Part shown: positions 19,561 to 32,291 of the stretch, piece by piece
Position numbering within the stretch: position 1 is the first letter of the stretch
Layout: each line of letters begins with the position of its first letter
Source of the DNA: Nitrospirota bacterium
GTDB taxonomy: Bacteria; Nitrospirota; UBA9217
Direction: 5' to 3'
DNA: 64,000 nt
Assembly: GCA_963796285.1 (NCBI GenBank)
Contig: CAWCKW010000012.1
Coordinates: 928,001 to 992,000 of the forward strand
Made by a program: the position numbers and the translations under genes
Notes under the pieces: generated by a model
What the model was told of the DNA's origin: nothing
Seen by the model: the letters and a program-made list of their open reading frames with translations, nothing else
Database searches by the model: none

Positions 19561-20117
19561 ATGAGAGAGATTAGGAGTCCGATACCCGTTAAGCTGTTCA
19601 TCGGGATGCTTTCACCTGAACCTGAACTATTCGACATATGCGCGAATATCGTATGCAAGGAATATGGTCCCATCGATTATCAAAGCGAGATCGTTCCATG
19701 GACTAATTCGGATTTCTACCAGGAAGAAATGGGATCCGGAATTTTACGAAAGTTTATTTTTTTCGAGCAATTGAGGGACCCCGGGGACCTGCCGGCAATA
19801 AAATTAAACACCATCAGGATCGAGAATAGCCTCGCAATTCAGACTGTGAAATAAAGCTCGACGCAGAATCAACCTCGACCCCGGATACGTGACCGAAGCC
19901 AAGGTCGTACTTGCAACAACCAAGGATTACACTCATCGCCTTTACATCGGCGAAGGCATCTATGCCGAAGTGACGCTCCGATACGTCAATAAAATTCGAA
20001 GCTTTACTCCCTTTGATTATACTTACCTCGACTATTGCTCGGAAACGTACATAACAATGTTCAATGAAGACCCGGGACATTCTGCGAACAGCGCTGCAAA
20101 TACACGCGCAGAAATGA
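19561..20117 (+). CDS. DUF4416-family protein, frameshifted
   Basis: YQEEMG..LRKF, RRINLDPGY, VLATTKDYTHRLY, TYLDY. Confidence 0.75.
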
Positions 20118-20144
20118 TCATGCACGAAGTAGTGAAGAGAGCGC

Positions 20145-20673
20145 TCAGGTATGGGAGGACATTGCTGCAGGAGGCACCGCTTGCTTCGGCATTGCTATGG
20201 AAAGAAAGATCTCTGCGGACCGTAAGGTCTCCGGAGAGATAAATTCACGGGTTGGCAAATGAATCCTGTCGTAAGGTTGAATGTCTCTATCCACAAACGT
20301 CACGGTGAAGTCCTTCCAGGACTGAAATTCCTTCATTGATTGCCGGATCTGCTCATGGACCATCATTTCAATAACCTCGATGGTGACCTTACCTGTCTTC
20401 AAGAACATCCCCCCCCAGCGGTGAAGAGGAATTCATTTTCTGAAGCTTCAGAGTTTCGAGCAATTCCGCGTCGGTGATTATTCCATATTCGACGAGGAGG
20501 TCACCGATGGCCCGTGAATACGGAGAAAACGCCTGAAGTATTACCCTTGTAGAGCAGCATGGTCCGATGTTGTTTCCAGTTTCCAGGACCAGCTCCCCGG
20601 TGCGAAGCTCCATACCTATAATAAATAAAACATCCTCAACCGAAAAACCTGACGCTTCAGCCTTCTTGGTCAC
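20145..20673 (-). CDS. DUF4388/PATAN-like protein, frameshifted
   Basis: FSVEDVLFIIG..RTGELVL, IGDLLVEYGIIT..L..ALKLQ-like, LG..FLKTG. Confidence 0.55.
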
Positions 20674-21038: not shown

Positions 21039-21104
21039 TGTGATTTGAATCACAAATATTGTGTAATCAGAATCACATACTATCTTTCGATCTTAACGTA
21101 CAAT
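21039..21104 (+). promoter_or_regulatory. Tandem CRP-family boxes plus -10 element (copy 1)
   Basis: TGTGA-tttgaa-TCACA 21039-21054, TGTAA-tcagaa-TCACA 21062-21077, TACAAT 21099-21104. Confidence 0.65.
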
Positions 21105-21172
21105 TGCACCAACTTTAAATCCAAATCTCACTCAATCTATTGCGGGTAGTAACAGATTTCATATTTTTTCAA

Positions 21173-21243
21173 ATTTTTTCTGCTCAGAGCAAAGGGAGTA
21201 ATGAGTTACCAGATTCACTGTACGTAGAGCCGCCCGAGAGAAT
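21173..21243 (+). ncRNA. Degenerate GEMM-I riboswitch lacking P2
   Basis: Aligns to 22531-22630 at both ends (CTGCTCAGAGCAAA...GAGCCGCC.GAGAGAA) with about 29 nt deleted. Confidence 0.55.
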
Positions 21244-21289
21244 CACCGGTATTTAAATATTGCCCGAAACAGAGGAGGAACACTAACTG

Positions 21290-21688
21290 ATGGTTAACAA
21301 AAAGGCATGCTTCGTTCTTTTTGTATCACTGATTGTTACAAGCCTGTTCGGATGCGGAGGAGGCGGTGCCAATCTAGATGGCTCAACAAGCAACAACAGC
21401 GACCAGACAGCGACAGAAGGGGTAGCTTTAACATTGGCTTGGGATGCGCCAACAACGAACACAGACGGATCTTCCTTGAATCCTGCGACTGATCTATCTC
21501 AGTATAAAATATACTATGGAACGGCATCTTTTACATATATACAAGTAGTGGATGTCACAAATCCTGGGACGACTACAATTTCAAAAACCTTGAACCTTTC
21601 ACCAGGGACATACTATTTTTCGGTAACTACAGTAGATGCCTCTGGGCAGGAAAGCAGCTATTCAAATGAAGTAATGAAAACGATTTAA
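21290..21688 (+). CDS. Lipoprotein with FN3-like domain only (0 Ig repeats)
   Basis: Lipobox LFGC; LAWDAP..YKIYYG..YYFSVTTVD..ESSYSNEV. Confidence 0.85.
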   Translation: MVNKKACFVLFVSLIVTSLFGCGGGGANLDGSTSNNSDQTATEGVALTLAWDAPTTNTDGSSLNPATDLSQYKIYYGTASFTYIQVVDVTNPGTTTISKTLNLSPGTYYFSVTTVDASGQESSYSNEVMKTI

Positions 21689-21696
21689 TATACAAT

Positions 21697-21737
21697 AAAA
21701 CATGCCCCCCAGCTGCATCGGGGGGCATTTTGTTTTT
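21697..21737 (+). terminator. Intrinsic terminator
   Basis: ATGCCCCC-loop-GGGGGCAT followed by T tract. Confidence 0.7.
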
Positions 21738-22055: not shown

Positions 22056-22397
22056 CGCTCTTATAAAACGACCTCTATCGTTTGCTTTAATTCAAAGCGT
22101 CATTAGAAACAGACTCACTTAGGAACACTCCCTCCACTCCCAAATACACATTAACGATAACGTTACCTAGACCATCAGGCTTGCATCCACTTCCGATTTT
22201 TTCCAGAGCATCTCCGTAACACTGTCCGCAGTTTCAATAATCCTGCCAGTTTTTTAACAATGACATCAGCGGACGTTTCCTCATGCTTGAGCCGTCGGCA
22301 AATCACATTCTTTTTTACCACGAACCATAGATCATTACAGAATATTTATTGACGGCGACGTTGACGTGCTTCGTCATAATATCGTGCATTCATACAA

Positions 22398-22463
22398 TGT
22401 AACTCGAATCACAAATAATGTGTATTCGAAGTCACAGACTATCCTTCGGGTCTAACGTACTAT
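22398..22463 (+). promoter_or_regulatory. Tandem CRP-family boxes plus -10 element (copy 2)
   Basis: TGTAA-N6-TCACA 22398-22413, TGTAT-N6-TCACA 22421-22436, TACTAT 22458-22463. Confidence 0.6.
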
Positions 22464-22530
22464 TACATCAACGTGAGATTCAACTCTCACATGATCATTG
22501 ATGGCATTCATAGTTTTATGACTTTTTTTA

Positions 22531-22630
22531 TCTTTCTCTGCTCAGAGCAAACCAGGGGAAACCCTGGGACGCAGAGAAACGGGACTAACGAATTACTGGA
22601 GTCAATGTCCGCCGAGCCGCCAGAGAGAAT
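22531..22630 (+). ncRNA. GEMM-I (c-di-GMP-I family) riboswitch, A20 variant (candidate 3',3'-cGAMP sensor)
   Basis: GAGCAAACCAGG-GAAA-CCTGGGACGCA..CGGGACTAA..ATGTCCGCCGAGCCGCC; P1 UUUCUCUG/CAGAGAGA; A at 22546 aligns to Vc2 G20. Confidence 0.8.
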
Positions 22631-22672
22631 CACCGGCATTTATGTATTGCTCGAACAGAGGAGGAACACCAA

Positions 22673-23656
22673 ATGGTTAACAAAAAGGCATGTGTCATTC
22701 TTTTGACATCGCTGATCATTACAAGCTTGTTCGGCTGCGGAAGCGGAGGAGGTACTGCCAATCTCGATACATCGGCAAGCAGCAGCGGCGCCCAACTTGA
22801 ATCCATCGCATTAACGCCGACAAACCCAACGATCGCTGTAGATACCGATATACAATTCACCGCTACCGGCACATACTCGGACAACACAACAAAAGACCTG
22901 ACATCGACAGTAACATGGACCTCATCGTCTCTGGATGCTTTGAATGTTGCATCCGGCGCTGATGTTGCACAATTCACAGGATTCTCCGCATCAACAGCCG
23001 ATAACTCAAGCACGCTCCTCAGTGCGGGGCGCACAAAAGCCACGCGTTCTGGCAAGGCAAAGATCACGGCAAAGTGGGGAAGCATTTCAGGATCGACTAC
23101 TGTAACAGTGACTTCGGCAACACTCGTATCCATAGCCATCACCCCGACCGATCCAAGCATTGTCAAGGGAACAAACCAGCAGTTCGTTGCCACAGGTACA
23201 TTCTCAGACAATACAACGCAGGACCTGACGATAACAGTAACCTGGAGTTCATCGGATGCGGCTGTGGCAGCCATCAGTAACGCAGCAGGTTCCAATGGAT
23301 TGGCAACCTCTGTAGCCACTGGCTCAACAACGATCACGGCAACATCAGGGAGCGTTTCAGGAACTGCCACACTTGCCGTAACCGTGGGGGGTGTTGTATC
23401 TTTGGCGTGGGATGCGCCAACGACAAACACAGACGGATCGTCCTTGAATCCTGCGACTGATCTATCTCTGTACAAAATATACTATGGATCGGCATCTCTT
23501 ACGTATGCAACAGTATTGAATGTCACAAATCCGGGGACAACTACCATATCACAGACCTTGAACCTTTCACCAGGGACATACTATTTTTCGGTGACAACGG
23601 TAGATGCCTCTGGTCAGGAAAGCAGCTATTCAAACGAAGTAATGAAAACAATTTAA
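22673..23656 (+). CDS. Surface lipoprotein, 2 Big_2/Lig-type Ig repeats plus FN3-like tip
   Basis: Lipobox LFGC; SIA.TP..QF.ATGT.SD..DLT..VTW.SS repeats; same C-terminal domain as neighbours. Confidence 0.88.
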   Translation: MVNKKACVILLTSLIITSLFGCGSGGGTANLDTSASSSGAQLESIALTPTNPTIAVDTDIQFTATGTYSDNTTKDLTSTVTWTSSSLDALNVASGADVAQFTGFSASTADNSSTLLSAGRTKATRSGKAKITAKWGSISGSTTVTVTSATLVSIAITPTDPSIVKGTNQQFVATGTFSDNTTQDLTITVTWSSSDAAVAAISNAAGSNGLATSVATGSTTITATSGSVSGTATLAVTVGGVVSLAWDAPTTNTDGSSLNPATDLSLYKIYYGSASLTYATVLNVTNPGTTTISQTLNLSPGTYYFSVTTVDASGQESSYSNEVMKTI

Positions 23657-23662
23657 CATACA

Positions 23663-23706
23663 ACAAAACATGCCCCCCCAGCCGTACCGGGGGGGCATTC
23701 TGTTTG
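23663..23706 (+). terminator. Intrinsic terminator
   Basis: ATGCCCCCC-loop-GGGGGGCAT then TCTGTTT. Confidence 0.7.
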
Positions 23707-23880
23707 TAAACAAGCAATATTGGGCACTTCGTTTGCACAATGGAGCGAAGAAGCATGGCTCATATTGTGCGTGCAATAATGATCGTTTAAACCCACTTAT
23801 AGAAAGTAATTGAAACTCAATAACAGCAGCATGCATTCTTTCTTGCAGCGATCGTGAATCAGTCCTAATCTCTGCATTGC

Positions 23881-24030
23881 TTATCTGATCTTCTTCACCA
23901 ATAATCCTTCGTGATATCGATATCAAATGCGACCATCGTCCTACCAAGCTGGATCATATAATAAGTTATTTTCTGGTAAAGTTTGGCCACAGTGCCAGGC
24001 ACTTCCCCATTGCAGAAAAGACGATCATGA
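23881..24030 (-). pseudogene. Second FeoA-domain relic
   Basis: DRL/AMGEVPGTVAKLYQKITYYMIQLGRTMVAFDIDITKD/VKKIR*. Confidence 0.7.
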
Positions 24031-24517
24031 AGATAAAGTGCTGCGTTCTCATAAATTTGATCTCCGAGAAATAGTTTACGATGAGAAACGCTCAATGTGG
24101 TAAGCGACAGAGAGGACATCGCTTGGGGAAGTCAAATCTATTCTAACGTGTTAAATTGTGACTAGGCACATAAATACTTTTCGTGCATATCTTTAAACGA
24201 TTCGTATACTTCTATTCAAAGCGACATCATAAACGACCACGCAGGAACACCTCCTCCACTCCCAATACACATGACCATAACGTTACCTAGACCATCAGCC
24301 TTGCATCCTACTTCCGATTTTTTCAGAGCATCTCCGTAAGACTGTCCGCAGTTTCAATAATCCTGCCAGTTTTCTAACAATGACATCAGCGGACGTTTCC
24401 TCATGCTTGAGCCGTCGGCAAATCACATTCTTTATTACCACGAACCATAGATCATTACAGAATATTTATTGACGGCGACGTTGACGTGCTTCGTCATAAT
24501 ATCGTGCATTCATACAA

Positions 24518-24583
24518 TGTAACTGGAATCACAAATAATGTGTATTCGCTGTCACAGACTATCCTGCGAGCCTAACGTACTAT
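24518..24583 (+). promoter_or_regulatory. Tandem CRP-family boxes plus -10 element (copy 3)
   Basis: TGTAA-N6-TCACA 24518-24533, TGTAT-N6-TCACA 24541-24556, TACTAT 24578-24583. Confidence 0.6.
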
Positions 24584-24649
24584 TACATCAACGTGAGATT
24601 CAAATCTCACACGATCTTTGAGAGCGTTAATAGATTCAGACTTTTTCAA

Positions 24650-24749
24650 TCTTTCTCTGCTCAGAGCAAACCAGGGGAAACCCTGGGACGCAGAGAAACG
24701 GGACTAACGAATTACTGGAGTCAATGTCCGCCGAGCCGCCAGAGAGAAT
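24650..24749 (+). ncRNA. GEMM-I riboswitch, A20 variant (same aptamer as copy 2)
   Basis: Same sequence as 22531-22630; A20 equivalent at 24665. Confidence 0.8.
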
Positions 24750-24791
24750 CGCCGGCATTTATGTATTGCTCGAACAGAGGAGGAACACCAA

Positions 24792-26855
24792 ATGGTTAAC
24801 AAAAAGGCATGTGTCATTCTTTTGACATCGCTGATCATTACAAGCTTGTTCGGCTGCGGAAGCGGAGGAGGTACTGCCAATCTCGATACATCGGCAAGCA
24901 GCAGCGGCGCCCAACTTGAATCCATCGCATTAACGCCGACAAACCCAACGATCGCTGTAGATACCGATATACAATTCACCGCTACCGGCACATACTCGGA
25001 CAACACAACAAAAGACCTGACATCGACAGTAACATGGACCTCATCGTCTGTGGATGCTTTGAATGTTGCATCCAGCACTGATGTTGCACAGTTCACAGGA
25101 TTCTCCGCATCAACAGCCGATAACTCAAGCACGCTCCTCAGTGCGGGGCGCACAAAAGCCACGCGTTCTGGCAGGGCAAAGATCACGGCAAAGTGGGGAA
25201 GCATTTCCGGATCGACTACTGTAACAGTGACTTCGGCAACACTCGTATCCATAGCCATCACCCCGACCGATCCAAGCATTGTCAAGGGAACAAACCAGCA
25301 GTTCGTTGCCACAGGTACATTCTCAGACGATACAACGCAGGACCTGACGACAACAGTAACCTGGAGTTCATCGGATGCGGCTGTGGCAGCCATCAGTAAC
25401 GCAGCAGGATCCAATGGGTTGACAACCTCAGCAGCCGCCGGCTCAACAACGATCACGGCAGCATCGGGAAGCATATCGGGTTCAACTTCGCTGACGGTAA
25501 CTTCGGCTGTACTCGTGTCCATAGCAGTAAACCCGACGAGCCCGAGCATAGCGCCAGGGACTACGCAGCAGTTTACTGCCACAGGCACTTACTCCGACAA
25601 TACGACGCAGGACCTGACTACAACAGTGATGTGGAATTCATCGACTGCGGCAGTTGCCACCATTAGTAACGCGGCAGGTTCCAACGGATTGGCTAATTCT
25701 GTAGCCACGGGCTCAACTACGATCACGGCAACATCGGGAAGTATTTCAGGAATTTCCACGCTGACAGTGACACCCGCAACGCTCGTTTCCATTGCGCTCA
25801 CCCCTACCAATCCAAGTATTGCGCTGGGGACATCCAAGCAGTTCACTGCAACGGGGACGTACTCCGATAATTCGACGCAGAACCTGACCACGTCAGTAAC
25901 TTGGAAGTCATCATCGACGACTGTTGCAGCCATCAGTAACGCAGCAGGTTCCAATGGTAAGGCAACATCAGTGGCCGCGGGCTCAACAACGATTACGGCA
26001 ACATCGGGAAGTATATCGGGATCTACCACGCTTACGGTGACCTCGGCTACACTCGTATCCATAGCGGTTACCCCGACCAACCCAAGCATTGCGCTGGGGA
26101 CATCCAAGCAGTTCACTGCCACGGGGACGTACTCCGATAATTCGACGCAAAACCTGACCACATCAGCAACTTGGAAGTCATCATCGACGACTGTTGCAGC
26201 CATCAGTAACGCAGCAGGTTCCAATGGTAAGGCAACATCAGTAGCCGCGGGTTCAACAACGATCACGGCAACATCGGGAAGTATATCGGGATCTACCACG
26301 CTTACGGTGACCTCGGCTACACTCGTATCCATAGCGGTTACCCCGATTAATCAGAGCATTTCGCTTGGAGCAACACAGCAATTCACCGCAACAGGGACTT
26401 ACTCCAATAGTTCAACACAGAACCTGACGACCGCAGTAACCTGGAAGTCATCAACGGCGGCTATTGCAAGTATCAGTAACGCAGCAGGTTCCAATGGACT
26501 GGCAACCTCGGTAGCAGCTGGCTCAACGACGATAACAGCAACGTCAGGGAGCGTTTCAGGAACTGCCACTCTTGCCGTAACCGGGAGCGGTGTTATATCT
26601 TTGGCGTGGGATGCGCCAACGACGAATACAGATGGATCTTCCCTGAATCCTGCGACTGATCTATCCCTGTACAAAATATACTATGGATCGGCATCTCTTA
26701 CATATGCAACAGTTGTGAATGTCACAAATCCTGGGACGACTACAATTTCAAAGACCTTGAACCTTTCACCGGGGACATACTATTTTTCGGTGACGACAGT
26801 AGATTCCTCCGGTCAGGAAAGCAGCTATTCAAATGAAGTAATGAAGACGATATAA
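24792..26855 (+). CDS. Surface lipoprotein, 6 Big_2/Lig-type Ig repeats plus FN3-like tip
   Basis: Lipobox LFGC, 90-aa (270-nt) repeats; 360 aa longer than its paralog, equal to 4 repeats. Confidence 0.9.
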   Translation: MVNKKACVILLTSLIITSLFGCGSGGGTANLDTSASSSGAQLESIALTPTNPTIAVDTDIQFTATGTYSDNTTKDLTSTVTWTSSSVDALNVASSTDVAQFTGFSASTADNSSTLLSAGRTKATRSGRAKITAKWGSISGSTTVTVTSATLVSIAITPTDPSIVKGTNQQFVATGTFSDDTTQDLTTTVTWSSSDAAVAAISNAAGSNGLTTSAAAGSTTITAASGSISGSTSLTVTSAVLVSIAVNPTSPSIAPGTTQQFTATGTYSDNTTQDLTTTVMWNSSTAAVATISNAAGSNGLANSVATGSTTITATSGSISGISTLTVTPATLVSIALTPTNPSIALGTSKQFTATGTYSDNSTQNLTTSVTWKSSSTTVAAISNAAGSNGKATSVAAGSTTITATSGSISGSTTLTVTSATLVSIAVTPTNPSIALGTSKQFTATGTYSDNSTQNLTTSATWKSSSTTVAAISNAAGSNGKATSVAAGSTTITATSGSISGSTTLTVTSATLVSIAVTPINQSISLGATQQFTATGTYSNSSTQNLTTAVTWKSSTAAIASISNAAGSNGLATSVAAGSTTITATSGSVSGTATLAVTGSGVISLAWDAPTTNTDGSSLNPATDLSLYKIYYGSASLTYATVVNVTNPGTTTISKTLNLSPGTYYFSVTTVDSSGQESSYSNEVMKTI

Positions 26856-26860
26856 GATAC

Positions 26861-26901
26861 AAACAGAATGCCTTCCAGCAGCACCGGAGGCATTCTGTTT
26901 C
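26861..26901 (+). terminator. Intrinsic terminator
   Basis: AAACAGAATGCCT-loop-AGGCATTCTGTTT. Confidence 0.7.
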
Positions 26902-30296: not shown

Positions 30297-32291
30297 TTAC
30301 AATGCTACATTAAAGGTCCTCAGCACCCAGTTCAGCGCACCTCCCACGCCAAAGGCAAAAGGGAATATGAAAGCCACCATATACAGGGCGGTCTTCATTC
30401 CCCGCTCCTTCACCATCATGAAAAAGTTCGCGATACAGGGCACAAACAAGGTCATCACGGTGAGGCTCACCACGATCTGGATAGGGTCAAGCAATCCTTC
30501 TTTGGCCAGCATGAAGAGCCCTGCAGCGCCATAATCACGACGTAAAAATCCGATGACGAATGCCTCTGCAGCCCTGCTTGGGAGGCCGAGGAAATGACAA
30601 CAATTGGATCGGTCAGCTGCTGGATATAGGCAAGTGCCCCCACTTTGTGACTGATAAAAAGGATGAACGTGCCGAGAATGAAAAGCGGCACCGCTTCTTT
30701 CAAATACCACTGCACACGGGCGAGGGTCTTGACAAGGATGTTCGAAAGTTGCGGCACGCGAATCGGAGGCAATTCGAGAACGAAGTCGGACGGATCGCCA
30801 GGGATGACCTTTGCGGCCAAATACCCTACGAGAAGCATCACCGCAAGCAGTGTGACAAGCCAGATGATCGTGGCAAGGCCGGAAAGCCCGGCAACCAGTC
30901 CGAGGATGACTCCCAGCTGGGCTGAACAGGGCACCCCGAGCGCAAGCAGAAGTGTTACAAGTATTTTCTCTTTTTTGGTCTCAAGGATCCGTGTGGTAAG
31001 CGTTGCCATAGTGTCGCAGCCCAACCCGAGGATCATAGGGAGCACTGCTTTGCCGTTCAGACCCATGATTTTAAAGACCTTATTCACCATGACCGCGAGC
31101 CGGGGCAGATAACCCGAGTCTTCCAAAAGGCCGAACGCGATAAAGAAGAACCCAACGATCGGCAACACAATAGCGATGGAATAAGTGAGCGCCATGGTCA
31201 CGAGTCCGTAGTCGCCGACGATCAATTCCTGAAGAAATGGTATCGGCAGGATAAAATGAACGATCTTTACAGCCCAGGGGTTCAAGTATTCGCCAAAGAC
31301 GATCTTCTCAAGAAAATTGACCGCAGTGCCTGCCCCCAGCACACCAACAAATTGATAAACGACATAGAGAACGGCCAAGCAGGATCGGCAACCCATAGAC
31401 CGGATGCATGGACCATTTGCCGATGTGGAATGCAATGGCTGAACCCTTCCCTGCCTCGTGGAGGCTCAGTGACTGTGCGAGGATCTCATCGGCTTTCTTC
31501 ATCCTTCGCTGGTTGATGAGATAACCGAGCGAGTTATTGAATTTCGACTGCACTCCCTGGCGAATCTTTTCTATCTCTTTGATCACGTGGTCCTGAACGT
31601 TCGCATGAAGCCAACCTTTGAGACTCTCGTCACCGGCCAGGATCATAAGCGCAAGAGCTCGGCGCGAAATATTAGCTTCCGGCAACAAAACAGAGATGTC
31701 CCTGATCCCGCCTTCGATCTTATCATCGTACAACACCTCGATAGCGGACGGCCGCGGATGCTGAATGCCCTTCAACAGCTTATCGATACCGCTCCGCCGG
31801 ATCGCCACGGTTTTTACCACTTCAATACCGAGGATCTGTGAGAGCGTCTCCTGATTGATTACGATGCCGCGACTCCTCGCCTCATCGTCCATATTGAGAT
31901 CGAGAATAAACGGTACACCCATTTCCGCAAGTTGGAGCGTGATCAATAGTCCGCGCCTCAGGTTCTTGGTATCGGCAACCTGCACGATCACATCAGCCCG
32001 ATCGGAGATCAGCATGTCCCGCGTTACCTTCTCGTCCTCGGACATGGGCACCAGACTGTTCACCCCGGGAGTGTCGATCACGAGGGTCTTTGTTTTATTC
32101 AAGACCGCATTTCCATAAGTCACTTCCACCGTGGTGCCCGGATAATTGGAAACGGTAACATAGGTTCCCGTCAGAAGACCAAAAAGCGCGCTTTTGCCGA
32201 CATTGGGATTGCCTATCAGAAGGACCTTATGTAAAGTGGAATCACGGTAACGATTTTCATTGCTAGACCCATGGTCATGCATTATATGCAC
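30297..32291 (-). CDS. feoB: Ferrous iron transporter FeoB, split by two frameshifts
   Basis: GNPNVGKS, NYPGTTVE, DTPG, LEDSGYLPR, PCSAQ, FVLELPP, LFVPCIA. Confidence 0.92.

Follow-up and report, generated by a model that had tools for sequence, protein, structure and literature searches.

Duplicated A20-type GEMM-I riboswitches precede surface-lipoprotein genes in a Nitrospirota bacterium and may sense 3',3'-cGAMP

A 64,000-nucleotide stretch of the genome of a Nitrospirota bacterium (GCA_963796285.1, contig CAWCKW010000012.1, positions 928,001 to 992,000 of the forward strand; hereafter the window) carries two bona fide GEMM-I riboswitches that are A20-type, with adenine at the position of G20 in the Vibrio cholerae Vc2 aptamer; each copy heads, and would control, a gene for a surface lipoprotein. 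We infer that these aptamers sense 3',3'-cGAMP (cyclic GMP-AMP), and possibly also cyclic di-GMP (c-di-GMP); this is the best single reading of the comparisons given below, and we hold it with somewhat better than even confidence.

A covariance-model scan of the whole window (Rfam 15, cmscan) gave exactly two matches above the gathering threshold, both to RF01051 (c-di-GMP-I) and both on the + strand, at 22536-22624 and 24655-24743; each scores 52.0 bits against a gathering cut-off of 35 bits (E 2.9e-07) and spans positions 1-87 of the 87-position model. The initial annotation had described an element of ~100 nt in two copies, ~43 nt before an ATG, with a Vc2-like architecture (P1 closing pair, C92, GAAA-capped P2, C44-G83 tertiary pair, and receptor), an A at the G20 position, and mismatches at the base of P3, placed in front of Ig-repeat surface lipoproteins, and had proposed this covariance-model search. 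The matches are significant for both copies and bear out that description: every architectural feature is found in the RF01051 alignment (Table 1), the alignment marks mismatches at the base of P3 in both copies, 43-44 nt separate each element from the ATG 3' of it (22673 and 24792), and the genes that follow encode lipoproteins with Big_2 repeats. Model position 11, equivalent to Vc2 G20, is A at 22546 and 24665; this base is unpaired and lies 5' of the two G-C/C-G pairs that close the P2 arm.

The fold is conserved beyond the window. RF01051 matches were found in 35 of 41 related genomes, and a DNA search with the leader recovered copies covering most of the aptamer in ten relatives. In an alignment of 14 aptamer copies from 11 genomes, comprising the window type and its relatives, A20 and the other pocket bases are invariant, the bases equivalent to C44 and G83 are kept in 14 of 14 copies, and paired cells amount to 84%, whereas slid partners give 33-40%. 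Two-sided changes occur in eight pairs, a level that 2 of 500 shuffles attain, with compensatory changes seen in P2 and P3 of the relatives, and the Rfam cut-off is passed by 12 of the 13 relatives' copies (36.8-65.4 bits).

By sequence, the window aptamers belong to a conserved clade, defined by A20, G48, C90, a GAAA loop, and a receptor, that spans many phyla. A scan with an exact core pattern, using one genome per species, returned at least 120 stretches; among the matches listed, 80 loci were sorted by record title as Nitrospirota-type (27), Gemmatimonadota-type (21), Acidobacteriota-type (15), Deltaproteobacteria/Desulfuromonadales (8, including one Geomonas), and other groups (9). When one fixed scaffold was searched in 201 genomes of the phylum with only positions 20 and 48 varied, the combination A20/G48 was matched 50 times (38 genomes), G20/A48 22 times (19 genomes), A20/A48 three times (three genomes), and G20/G48 not at all (0 genomes); because kin are not independent, this census describes two aptamer lineages and not a statistical law. 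In Vc2, A48 forms a Hoogsteen pair with U90 (PMC11705072) and is counted among the nucleotides needed for ligand recognition (PMC3764141). In a heuristic read-out that relies on a noisy tail pattern, position 90 is C in all 20 A20/G48 copies of the relatives and in 65 of the 79 A20/G48 copies listed in the multi-phylum set, and is mostly U where position 48 is A. C90 is the most probable pairing partner of G48, beside the pocket, and the A48G change, judged by this pattern, is a signature of the clade and not damage. The worry that A48G could weaken binding is thereby largely removed, given that G48 is invariant in the clade and coupled with C90.

The clade is distinct from the aptamers of a cultured member of the Geobacteraceae, a Geomonas genome (reached via L207) with 17 RF01051 matches. 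Inspected by eye, 13 of these are of one type (A20, GCGA loop, short P3 without receptor, A48); the rest comprise one aptamer like those of the window, one with a different A20 form, and two with G20. We take the 13 GCGA-loop aptamers to be of the classical GEMM-Ib type. Compared with them, the window aptamers are not of the Geobacter type and form a separate sub-clade by sequence. Other A20 aptamers had been suggested as worth seeking in the window's own genome, and four of its seven RF01051 matches proved to be A20 (the window pair and those at L006 and L007), the other three being G20. The L007 aptamer (G000:C3:340423-340499, - strand; L007 1501-1577) is of the Geobacter GEMM-Ib type, with A20 and a GCGA loop; it is followed by a strong terminator that uses its 3' strands, and it precedes a gene for a 215-aa lipoprotein of no assigned family. 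In the congener G001, the homologue of this lipoprotein (55% identity over 209 residues) lies behind a window-type aptamer, which hints that the two aptamer types are interchangeable, in a single case where the genes may be paralogs.

The fourth A20 aptamer of the genome (L006 1501-1580) scores 41.1 bits; the ORF that follows it (1729-2694, with two CXXCH motifs) looks unreliable, and we draw no regulon claim from it. Two further aptamers, L001 (G000:C12:1341586-1341665) and L002 (C13:270679-270757), have c-di-GMP-I-GGC (RF03167) as their best model (69.8 and 64.8 bits) and, as aligned, carry A instead of G directly behind GACGG.

The position that defines the A20 type corresponds to G20 of Vc2 and to A14 of Gs1761, a cGAMP riboswitch (PMC6140456); in that paper, A20 is presented as necessary for the cGAMP type and insufficient for selectivity, with P1 composition as a factor that may matter. 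As a cGAMP source, Hypr-type GGDEF enzymes had been proposed as the ones to look for. Among 23 rows of GGDEF matches, 21 places were parsed: at the specificity site 16 have Asp, one has Asn, two have Ser, and two are unreadable. The two proteins with Ser, the Hypr-defining residue, are the candidate cGAMP sources of this genome: a GAF-GGDEF protein with signature residues of GacA, and a HAMP-GGDDF protein resembling GSU1937.

The GAF-GGDEF protein (G000:C12:1973325-1974470, - strand; L020/L083) has as its best solved relative 6d9m (E 3.4e-31), a lysozyme-GGDEF fusion whose molecule name fits the Geobacter metallireducens GacA construct of PMC6456294, a paper that itself cites 5VS9. Both proteins share NYR (Tyr304) and GHLxGS (Ser348; GHLEGS compared with GHLVGS), and the roles of Tyr304, a non-arginine cross-dimer residue, and of Ser348 are described in the same source (PMC6456294). 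The motif of the GAF-GGDEF protein is GGEEF, located 26 rather than 24 residues after Ser, i.e., with two extra residues. Of 25 ortholog loci across the family, 23 retain the Ser/Tyr/GGEEF triad, which is therefore under selection. The combination of Ser with GGEEF is reported as inactive in GacA and WspR and as absent from natural Ser/Thr enzymes (PMC6456294); on sequence, the triad is a natural exception to the published rule that pairs Ser/Thr with GGDEF.

The second Ser-type protein (G000:C12:803593-804972) has HAMP and a partial GGDEF as its only Pfam domains, with GYANGS and GGDDF motifs and neither EAL nor HD-GYP; a full-length Geomonas homologue has the same motifs (33% identity, E 6e-68). 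GSU1937 contributes to cGAMP production in Geobacter sulfurreducens (PMC8835794, section 2.3), and the HAMP-GGDDF protein fits GSU1937 when compared with its published description. An enzyme combining Ser, GGDEF, and a non-arginine cross-dimer residue occurs in three of five distant genomes that carry clade aptamers, and in none of five same-phylum genomes from families without the clade, where 23 of 24 domains could be parsed and all have Asp.

A further membrane GGDEF protein of the genome (G000:C12:1400419-1400889, - strand; L016) has a GGEEF motif, with Asn as its specificity residue and NYA at the cross-dimer site.

The leaders of the relatives indicate how such an aptamer could act. In these, the 3' strand of P1 and the bases preceding it constitute the 5' half of a hairpin that is followed by a U run, which is the ON arrangement described for Geobacter with the pgcA terminator (PMC6456294). 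In most relatives the same aptamer would be an ON switch that operates through an intrinsic terminator sharing the P1 3' strand. The leaders of the window and of the close relative G004 have lost the 3' half of this hairpin, and the terminator scan of the window lists no + strand terminator-like site between aptamer and ATG. The minimum-free-energy fold of copy 1 (-48.4 kcal/mol, z -2.76) instead pairs 22531-22550 with 22647-22666, so that the Shine-Dalgarno (SD) sequence is paired; enforcing the aptamer gives a fold of -31.0 kcal/mol and raises the probability that the SD is unpaired from 0.02 to 0.45. Copy 2 and the G004a leader fold into the same long-range SD helix. Ligand binding would hold P1 (22533-22540 with 22621-22628), and without ligand the P1 5' strand and the A20 region would pair with 22647-22666 and bury the SD, such that ligand would turn translation ON. 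Energy models and comparison with close kin thus predict that the window leaders are a kinetic, translational ON switch.

Several points weigh against a cGAMP-responsive switch at these loci. In the affinities given in PMC6140456, Vc2 G20A binds c-di-GMP at 53 nM and cGAMP at 120 nM; for Cbe 1-2, an A20 aptamer found in nature, the values are 30 nM with c-di-GMP and 463 nM with cGAMP. The window aptamers have a GAAA loop, a receptor, G48, and C90, whereas in Geomonas the Geobacter-type aptamers combine a GCGA loop with A48 and are without a receptor. The GacA-like GAF-GGDEF protein, with GGEEF, falls outside the GGDEF/Asp374 criterion of the Goldilocks model (PMC6456294), and both Gemmatimonadota genomes sampled, two of the five distant genomes, have the aptamer type and no Ser-type GGDEF among parsed matches. 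As to the RNA itself, an A at 22577 costs the window copies one P3 pair relative to their relatives and most environmental contigs; the ancestral terminator is absent from both copies; the SD helix is seen only in close kin and without independent covariation; and the aptamer fold is less stable by 17 kcal/mol than the free one, so that switching would have to be kinetic. The initial annotation had reasoned from A20 to cGAMP switching of adhesin-like proteins, with the caveat that A20 alone does not guarantee selectivity. The A20 base, the fold, the Ser-type GGDEF proteins, and the lipoproteins stand, and the caveat is supported by the affinities above; the step from A20 to a cGAMP riboswitch falls short because the sub-clade differs, A20 aptamers bind c-di-GMP, the GacA-like protein has GGEEF, and two of five genomes showed no Ser-type GGDEF among parsed matches.

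The main rival explanation is that in practice these are ordinary c-di-GMP riboswitches, with a protonated adenine in the pocket and a signal supplied by canonical diguanylate cyclases, in which case the Ser-type GGDEF proteins would be unrelated or inactive. The affinity of Vc2 G20A and Cbe 1-2 for c-di-GMP equals or exceeds that for cGAMP (PMC6140456), the scaffold has the GAAA loop and receptor described for Vc2 (PMC6140456, PMC11705072), 16 of the 21 parsed GGDEF places are Asp-type, the Ser/GGEEF combination is predicted to be inactive (PMC6456294), and the two Gemmatimonadota genomes showed no Ser-type GGDEF among parsed matches. However, A20 is invariant in the clade, and G20 forms a separate group in the fixed scaffold (22 G20/A48 and 50 A20/G48 matches, with 0 for G20/G48); the same genomes also keep G20 aptamers, suggesting two signals that are told apart; and Ser-type GGDEF proteins co-occur with the clade. 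We consider this rival less likely than cGAMP sensing, and cGAMP remains the ligand that we prefer.

A second alternative is that the lipoprotein cassettes of this genus are losing riboswitch control, and that the two copies no longer gate expression. The loss of the ancestral terminator is consistent with such decay, as is base 22577 (24696 in copy 2), which is A in the window copies and C in all but one of 13 aligned relatives; C at this position would give an additional C-G pair at the base of P3, and C is also the base in most environmental contigs (X1, 79 of 112 depth; X13, 80 of 80). The window copies score 52 bits, compared with 56-65 bits in eight relatives' copies, and the third paralog of the window (gene A) has lost P2 outright. 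Its relic leader (21170-21289) still contains the 5' strand of P1, the region around A20, P3, and the SD, and has no Rfam match; ~29 nt that comprised P2 and the pocket bases of J2/3 are missing where CAGAGCAAA and CAGAGAAA flank the gap. It belongs to an older paralog, and the loss apparently took place between two CAGAG(C)AAA repeats. Small FN3-only paralogs in G004 likewise have eroded aptamers (L080 3164-3330; L081 1660-1812) with a mismatched P2, at 36.8 bits or below the cut-off. Against decay, both window copies retain all pocket bases, P1, P2, the loop, and the receptor, and score well over the cut-off; they are identical across the aptamer though their flanks have diverged to 94%; and they share a coherent alternative helix over the SD. 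We regard decay of the two copies as improbable. Metatranscriptome contigs (X20; 22300-22626 and gene parts, 90-99% likeness) were considered as RNA evidence and set aside except for the base at 22577, as assembled contigs show neither transcription nor RNA ends.

Weakest of all is the idea that the coupled A20, G48, and C90 reshape the pocket for a dinucleotide other than cGAMP or c-di-GMP, which draws on the joint change of three positions at or next to the pocket and on A48 of Vc2, which forms a Hoogsteen pair with U90 and is among the nucleotides needed for ligand recognition (PMC11705072, PMC3764141), and which we regard as very improbable given that C92, A47, and the whole scaffold are unchanged, that the triple A20/A47/C92 is that of the cGAMP type, and that no other synthase class was found (no match to PF18144 (SMODS)/CD-NTase in a genome that is 96% complete).

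In the relatives, 9 of the 13 first downstream ORFs encode lipoproteins with the same Big_2-like or FN3-like motifs, as judged by eye. Across phyla, 74 downstream ORFs were predicted and 54 scanned, after duplicates and spurious-looking high-G+C ORFs had been dropped; fn3, Big, PKD, CarboxypepD_reg, or DUF5666 domains were found in 31 of the 54 at E 1e-4 or better, a threshold at which several matches lie under Pfam's own cut-off, and the remainder include two cytochromes c7 and one PilZ protein.

Both aptamer copies in the window lie within a 2119-nt tandem duplication that takes in ~370 nt of upstream sequence, the leader, and the start of the gene (94-99% identity), and for this reason their sequences are identical; 22520-22819 is 99% identical to 24639-24938, and 22154-22453 is 94% identical to 24274-24573. 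The C-terminal FN3-like domain is common to all three paralogs (repeat D2), and a homologue in L202 scores fn3 at 2e-06; gene C has five or more Big_2 repeats with a DNA repeat spacing of 270 nt (repeat family D1). The + strand at 23670-23698, after gene B, reads as the same palindrome as the site listed on the - strand and continues with TCTGTTTGT. This hairpin, which is G+C-rich like the one after gene C, probably ends a unit, such that each paralog would have its own riboswitch-gene cassette, composed of promoter, riboswitch, Big_2/FN3 surface-lipoprotein gene, and terminator.

Table 1. Positions of riboswitch elements, genes, and hairpins of the three cassettes within the window.
Feature	Position	Strand	Details
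Relic leader of gene A	21170..21289	+	Repeat D6, 80% identical to 22572-22655
Gene A	21290..21688	+	132-aa paralog: signal peptide and C-terminal FN3-like domain only; repeats D2, D5
Hairpin after gene A	21702-21728		Terminator-like site scan
Aptamer copy 1 (GEMM-I, A20 type)	22533..22628	+	RF01051 52 bits; pair counts in 14 relatives
P1, copy 1	22533-22540 with 22621-22628	+	Closing pair G22540-C22621
P2, copy 1	22552-22557 with 22562-22567	+	GAAA loop 22558-22561
P3, copy 1	22576-22618	+	CUAAC receptor at 22585-22589
Tertiary pair, C44/G83 equivalents, copy 1	C22570 and G22611	+	RF01051 alignment
Pocket bases, copy 1	A20 22546, A47 A22573, C92 C22620	+	RF01051 alignment
Coupled bases, copy 1	G48 22574 (A48G change), C90 22618	+	RF01051 alignment
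Expression platform, copy 1	22629..22672	+	Without intrinsic terminator; SD GGAGGA 22660-22665
Gene B	22673..23656	+	327-aa lipoprotein, signal peptide ending LFGC, Big_2 E 8.6e-15, C-terminal FN3-like domain
G+C-rich hairpin after gene B	23670..23698	.	13-pair terminator-like site listed on - strand
Aptamer copy 2	24652..24747	+	Sequence same as copy 1 in aptamer, offset +2119; A20 at 24665; RF01051 52 bits
Expression platform, copy 2	24748..24791	+	Same predicted SD-sequestering helix; SD 24779-24784; fold -52.6 kcal/mol
Gene C	24792..26855	+	687-aa paralog, Big_2 E 5.9e-56 in 5 stretches, same C-terminal domain
Hairpin after gene C	26866..26895	+	Read from sequence, then TGTTTC; absent from terminator-scan list

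Palindromes resembling CRP/FNR sites (TGTGA-N6-TCACA, at most one mismatch) occur at 21039-21077, 22398-22413, and 24518-24533, so that every one of the three leaders has such a site ~115-135 nt upstream. These places account for four of the five matches in the window, with 1.7 expected per 64 kb and five reached by 2 of 100 shuffles; these sites may add transcriptional control to the cassettes. Promoter-like sites at 22371-22398 and 24491-24518 are not counted as evidence, the scan having given 12 sites where 10.4 were expected. Pfam searches of the flanking genes found no signalling or secretion genes beside the cassettes. Elsewhere in the window, a DUF4416 gene appears split (ORFs 19561-19854 and 19889-20242), as does a FeoB gene (overlapping ORFs 31308-32291 for the N-terminal part and 30467-31435 for the C-terminal part); both may be frameshifts or assembly errors.

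To our knowledge, Geobacter is almost the sole setting in which cGAMP signalling through riboswitches has been worked out. Among the listed papers whose text mentions Nitrospirota, cGAMP, and riboswitches together, none has these terms in its title or abstract. Here, a single Nitrospirota-type genome unites A20 clade aptamers, a Geobacter-type GEMM-Ib aptamer, and two Ser-type GGDEF proteins, and offers a compact set of RNAs and enzymes for asking whether cGAMP signalling reaches other phyla. More speculatively, A20/G48/C90 may mark a separate cGAMP riboswitch class that extends over many phyla, among them Nitrospirota, Gemmatimonadota, Acidobacteriota, and Desulfuromonadales, and whose partners would be Ser-type GGDEF enzymes, including a family-wide Ser/Tyr/GGEEF exception to the Goldilocks model. 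In that event, signalling by cGAMP from GGDEF enzymes would be widespread in bacteria of soil and sediment, where it would turn on surface proteins of beta-sandwich fold, and would not be peculiar to Geobacter; if the ligand is c-di-GMP, the finding would be that of an ordinary GEMM-I riboswitch. Two sharp questions follow: whether the G48/C90 coupling tunes the ligand, and whether a natural Ser/GGEEF enzyme is active.

Among known systems, the GEMM-Ib 3',3'-cGAMP (c-AMP-GMP) riboswitches of Geobacter (Gs1761 before pgcA, Gm0970, pilM) share with the window elements the GEMM-I fold, A20, A47, and C92. The likeness extends to an ON logic based on a terminator into which the 3' strand of P1 is drawn, as seen in the window's relatives; to the kind of gene controlled, which encodes secreted or surface proteins and in 2 of 54 clade leaders a cytochrome c7; and to a Hypr-signature GGDEF in the window's genome. 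They differ in that the window aptamers have a GAAA loop with receptor, G48, and C90, whereas the Geomonas type has a GCGA loop, A48, and mostly U90, and in that the window leaders are without a terminator and their host is Nitrospirota-type. The A20 GEMM-I aptamers of PMC6140456 share the scaffold with A20, and bind both ligands similarly or favour c-di-GMP. To the c-di-GMP-I family (RF01051), with its prototype Vc2, the window aptamers are linked by a full model match, P1, P2, and P3, the tetraloop and receptor, and the C44-G83 pair; relative to Vc2, G20 is replaced by A, A48 by G, and U90 by C. As for the enzymes, both candidate proteins of the window's genome have Ser at the specificity site, as do the Hypr enzyme GacA (GSU1658/Gmet_1914) and GSU1937. 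The GAF-GGDEF protein resembles GacA in its cross-dimer Tyr, and differs from it in that a GAF domain takes the place of the receiver, the motif reads GGEEF rather than GGDEF, and the spacing from Ser to this motif is two residues longer; the second protein resembles GSU1937 in combining HAMP with GGDDF.

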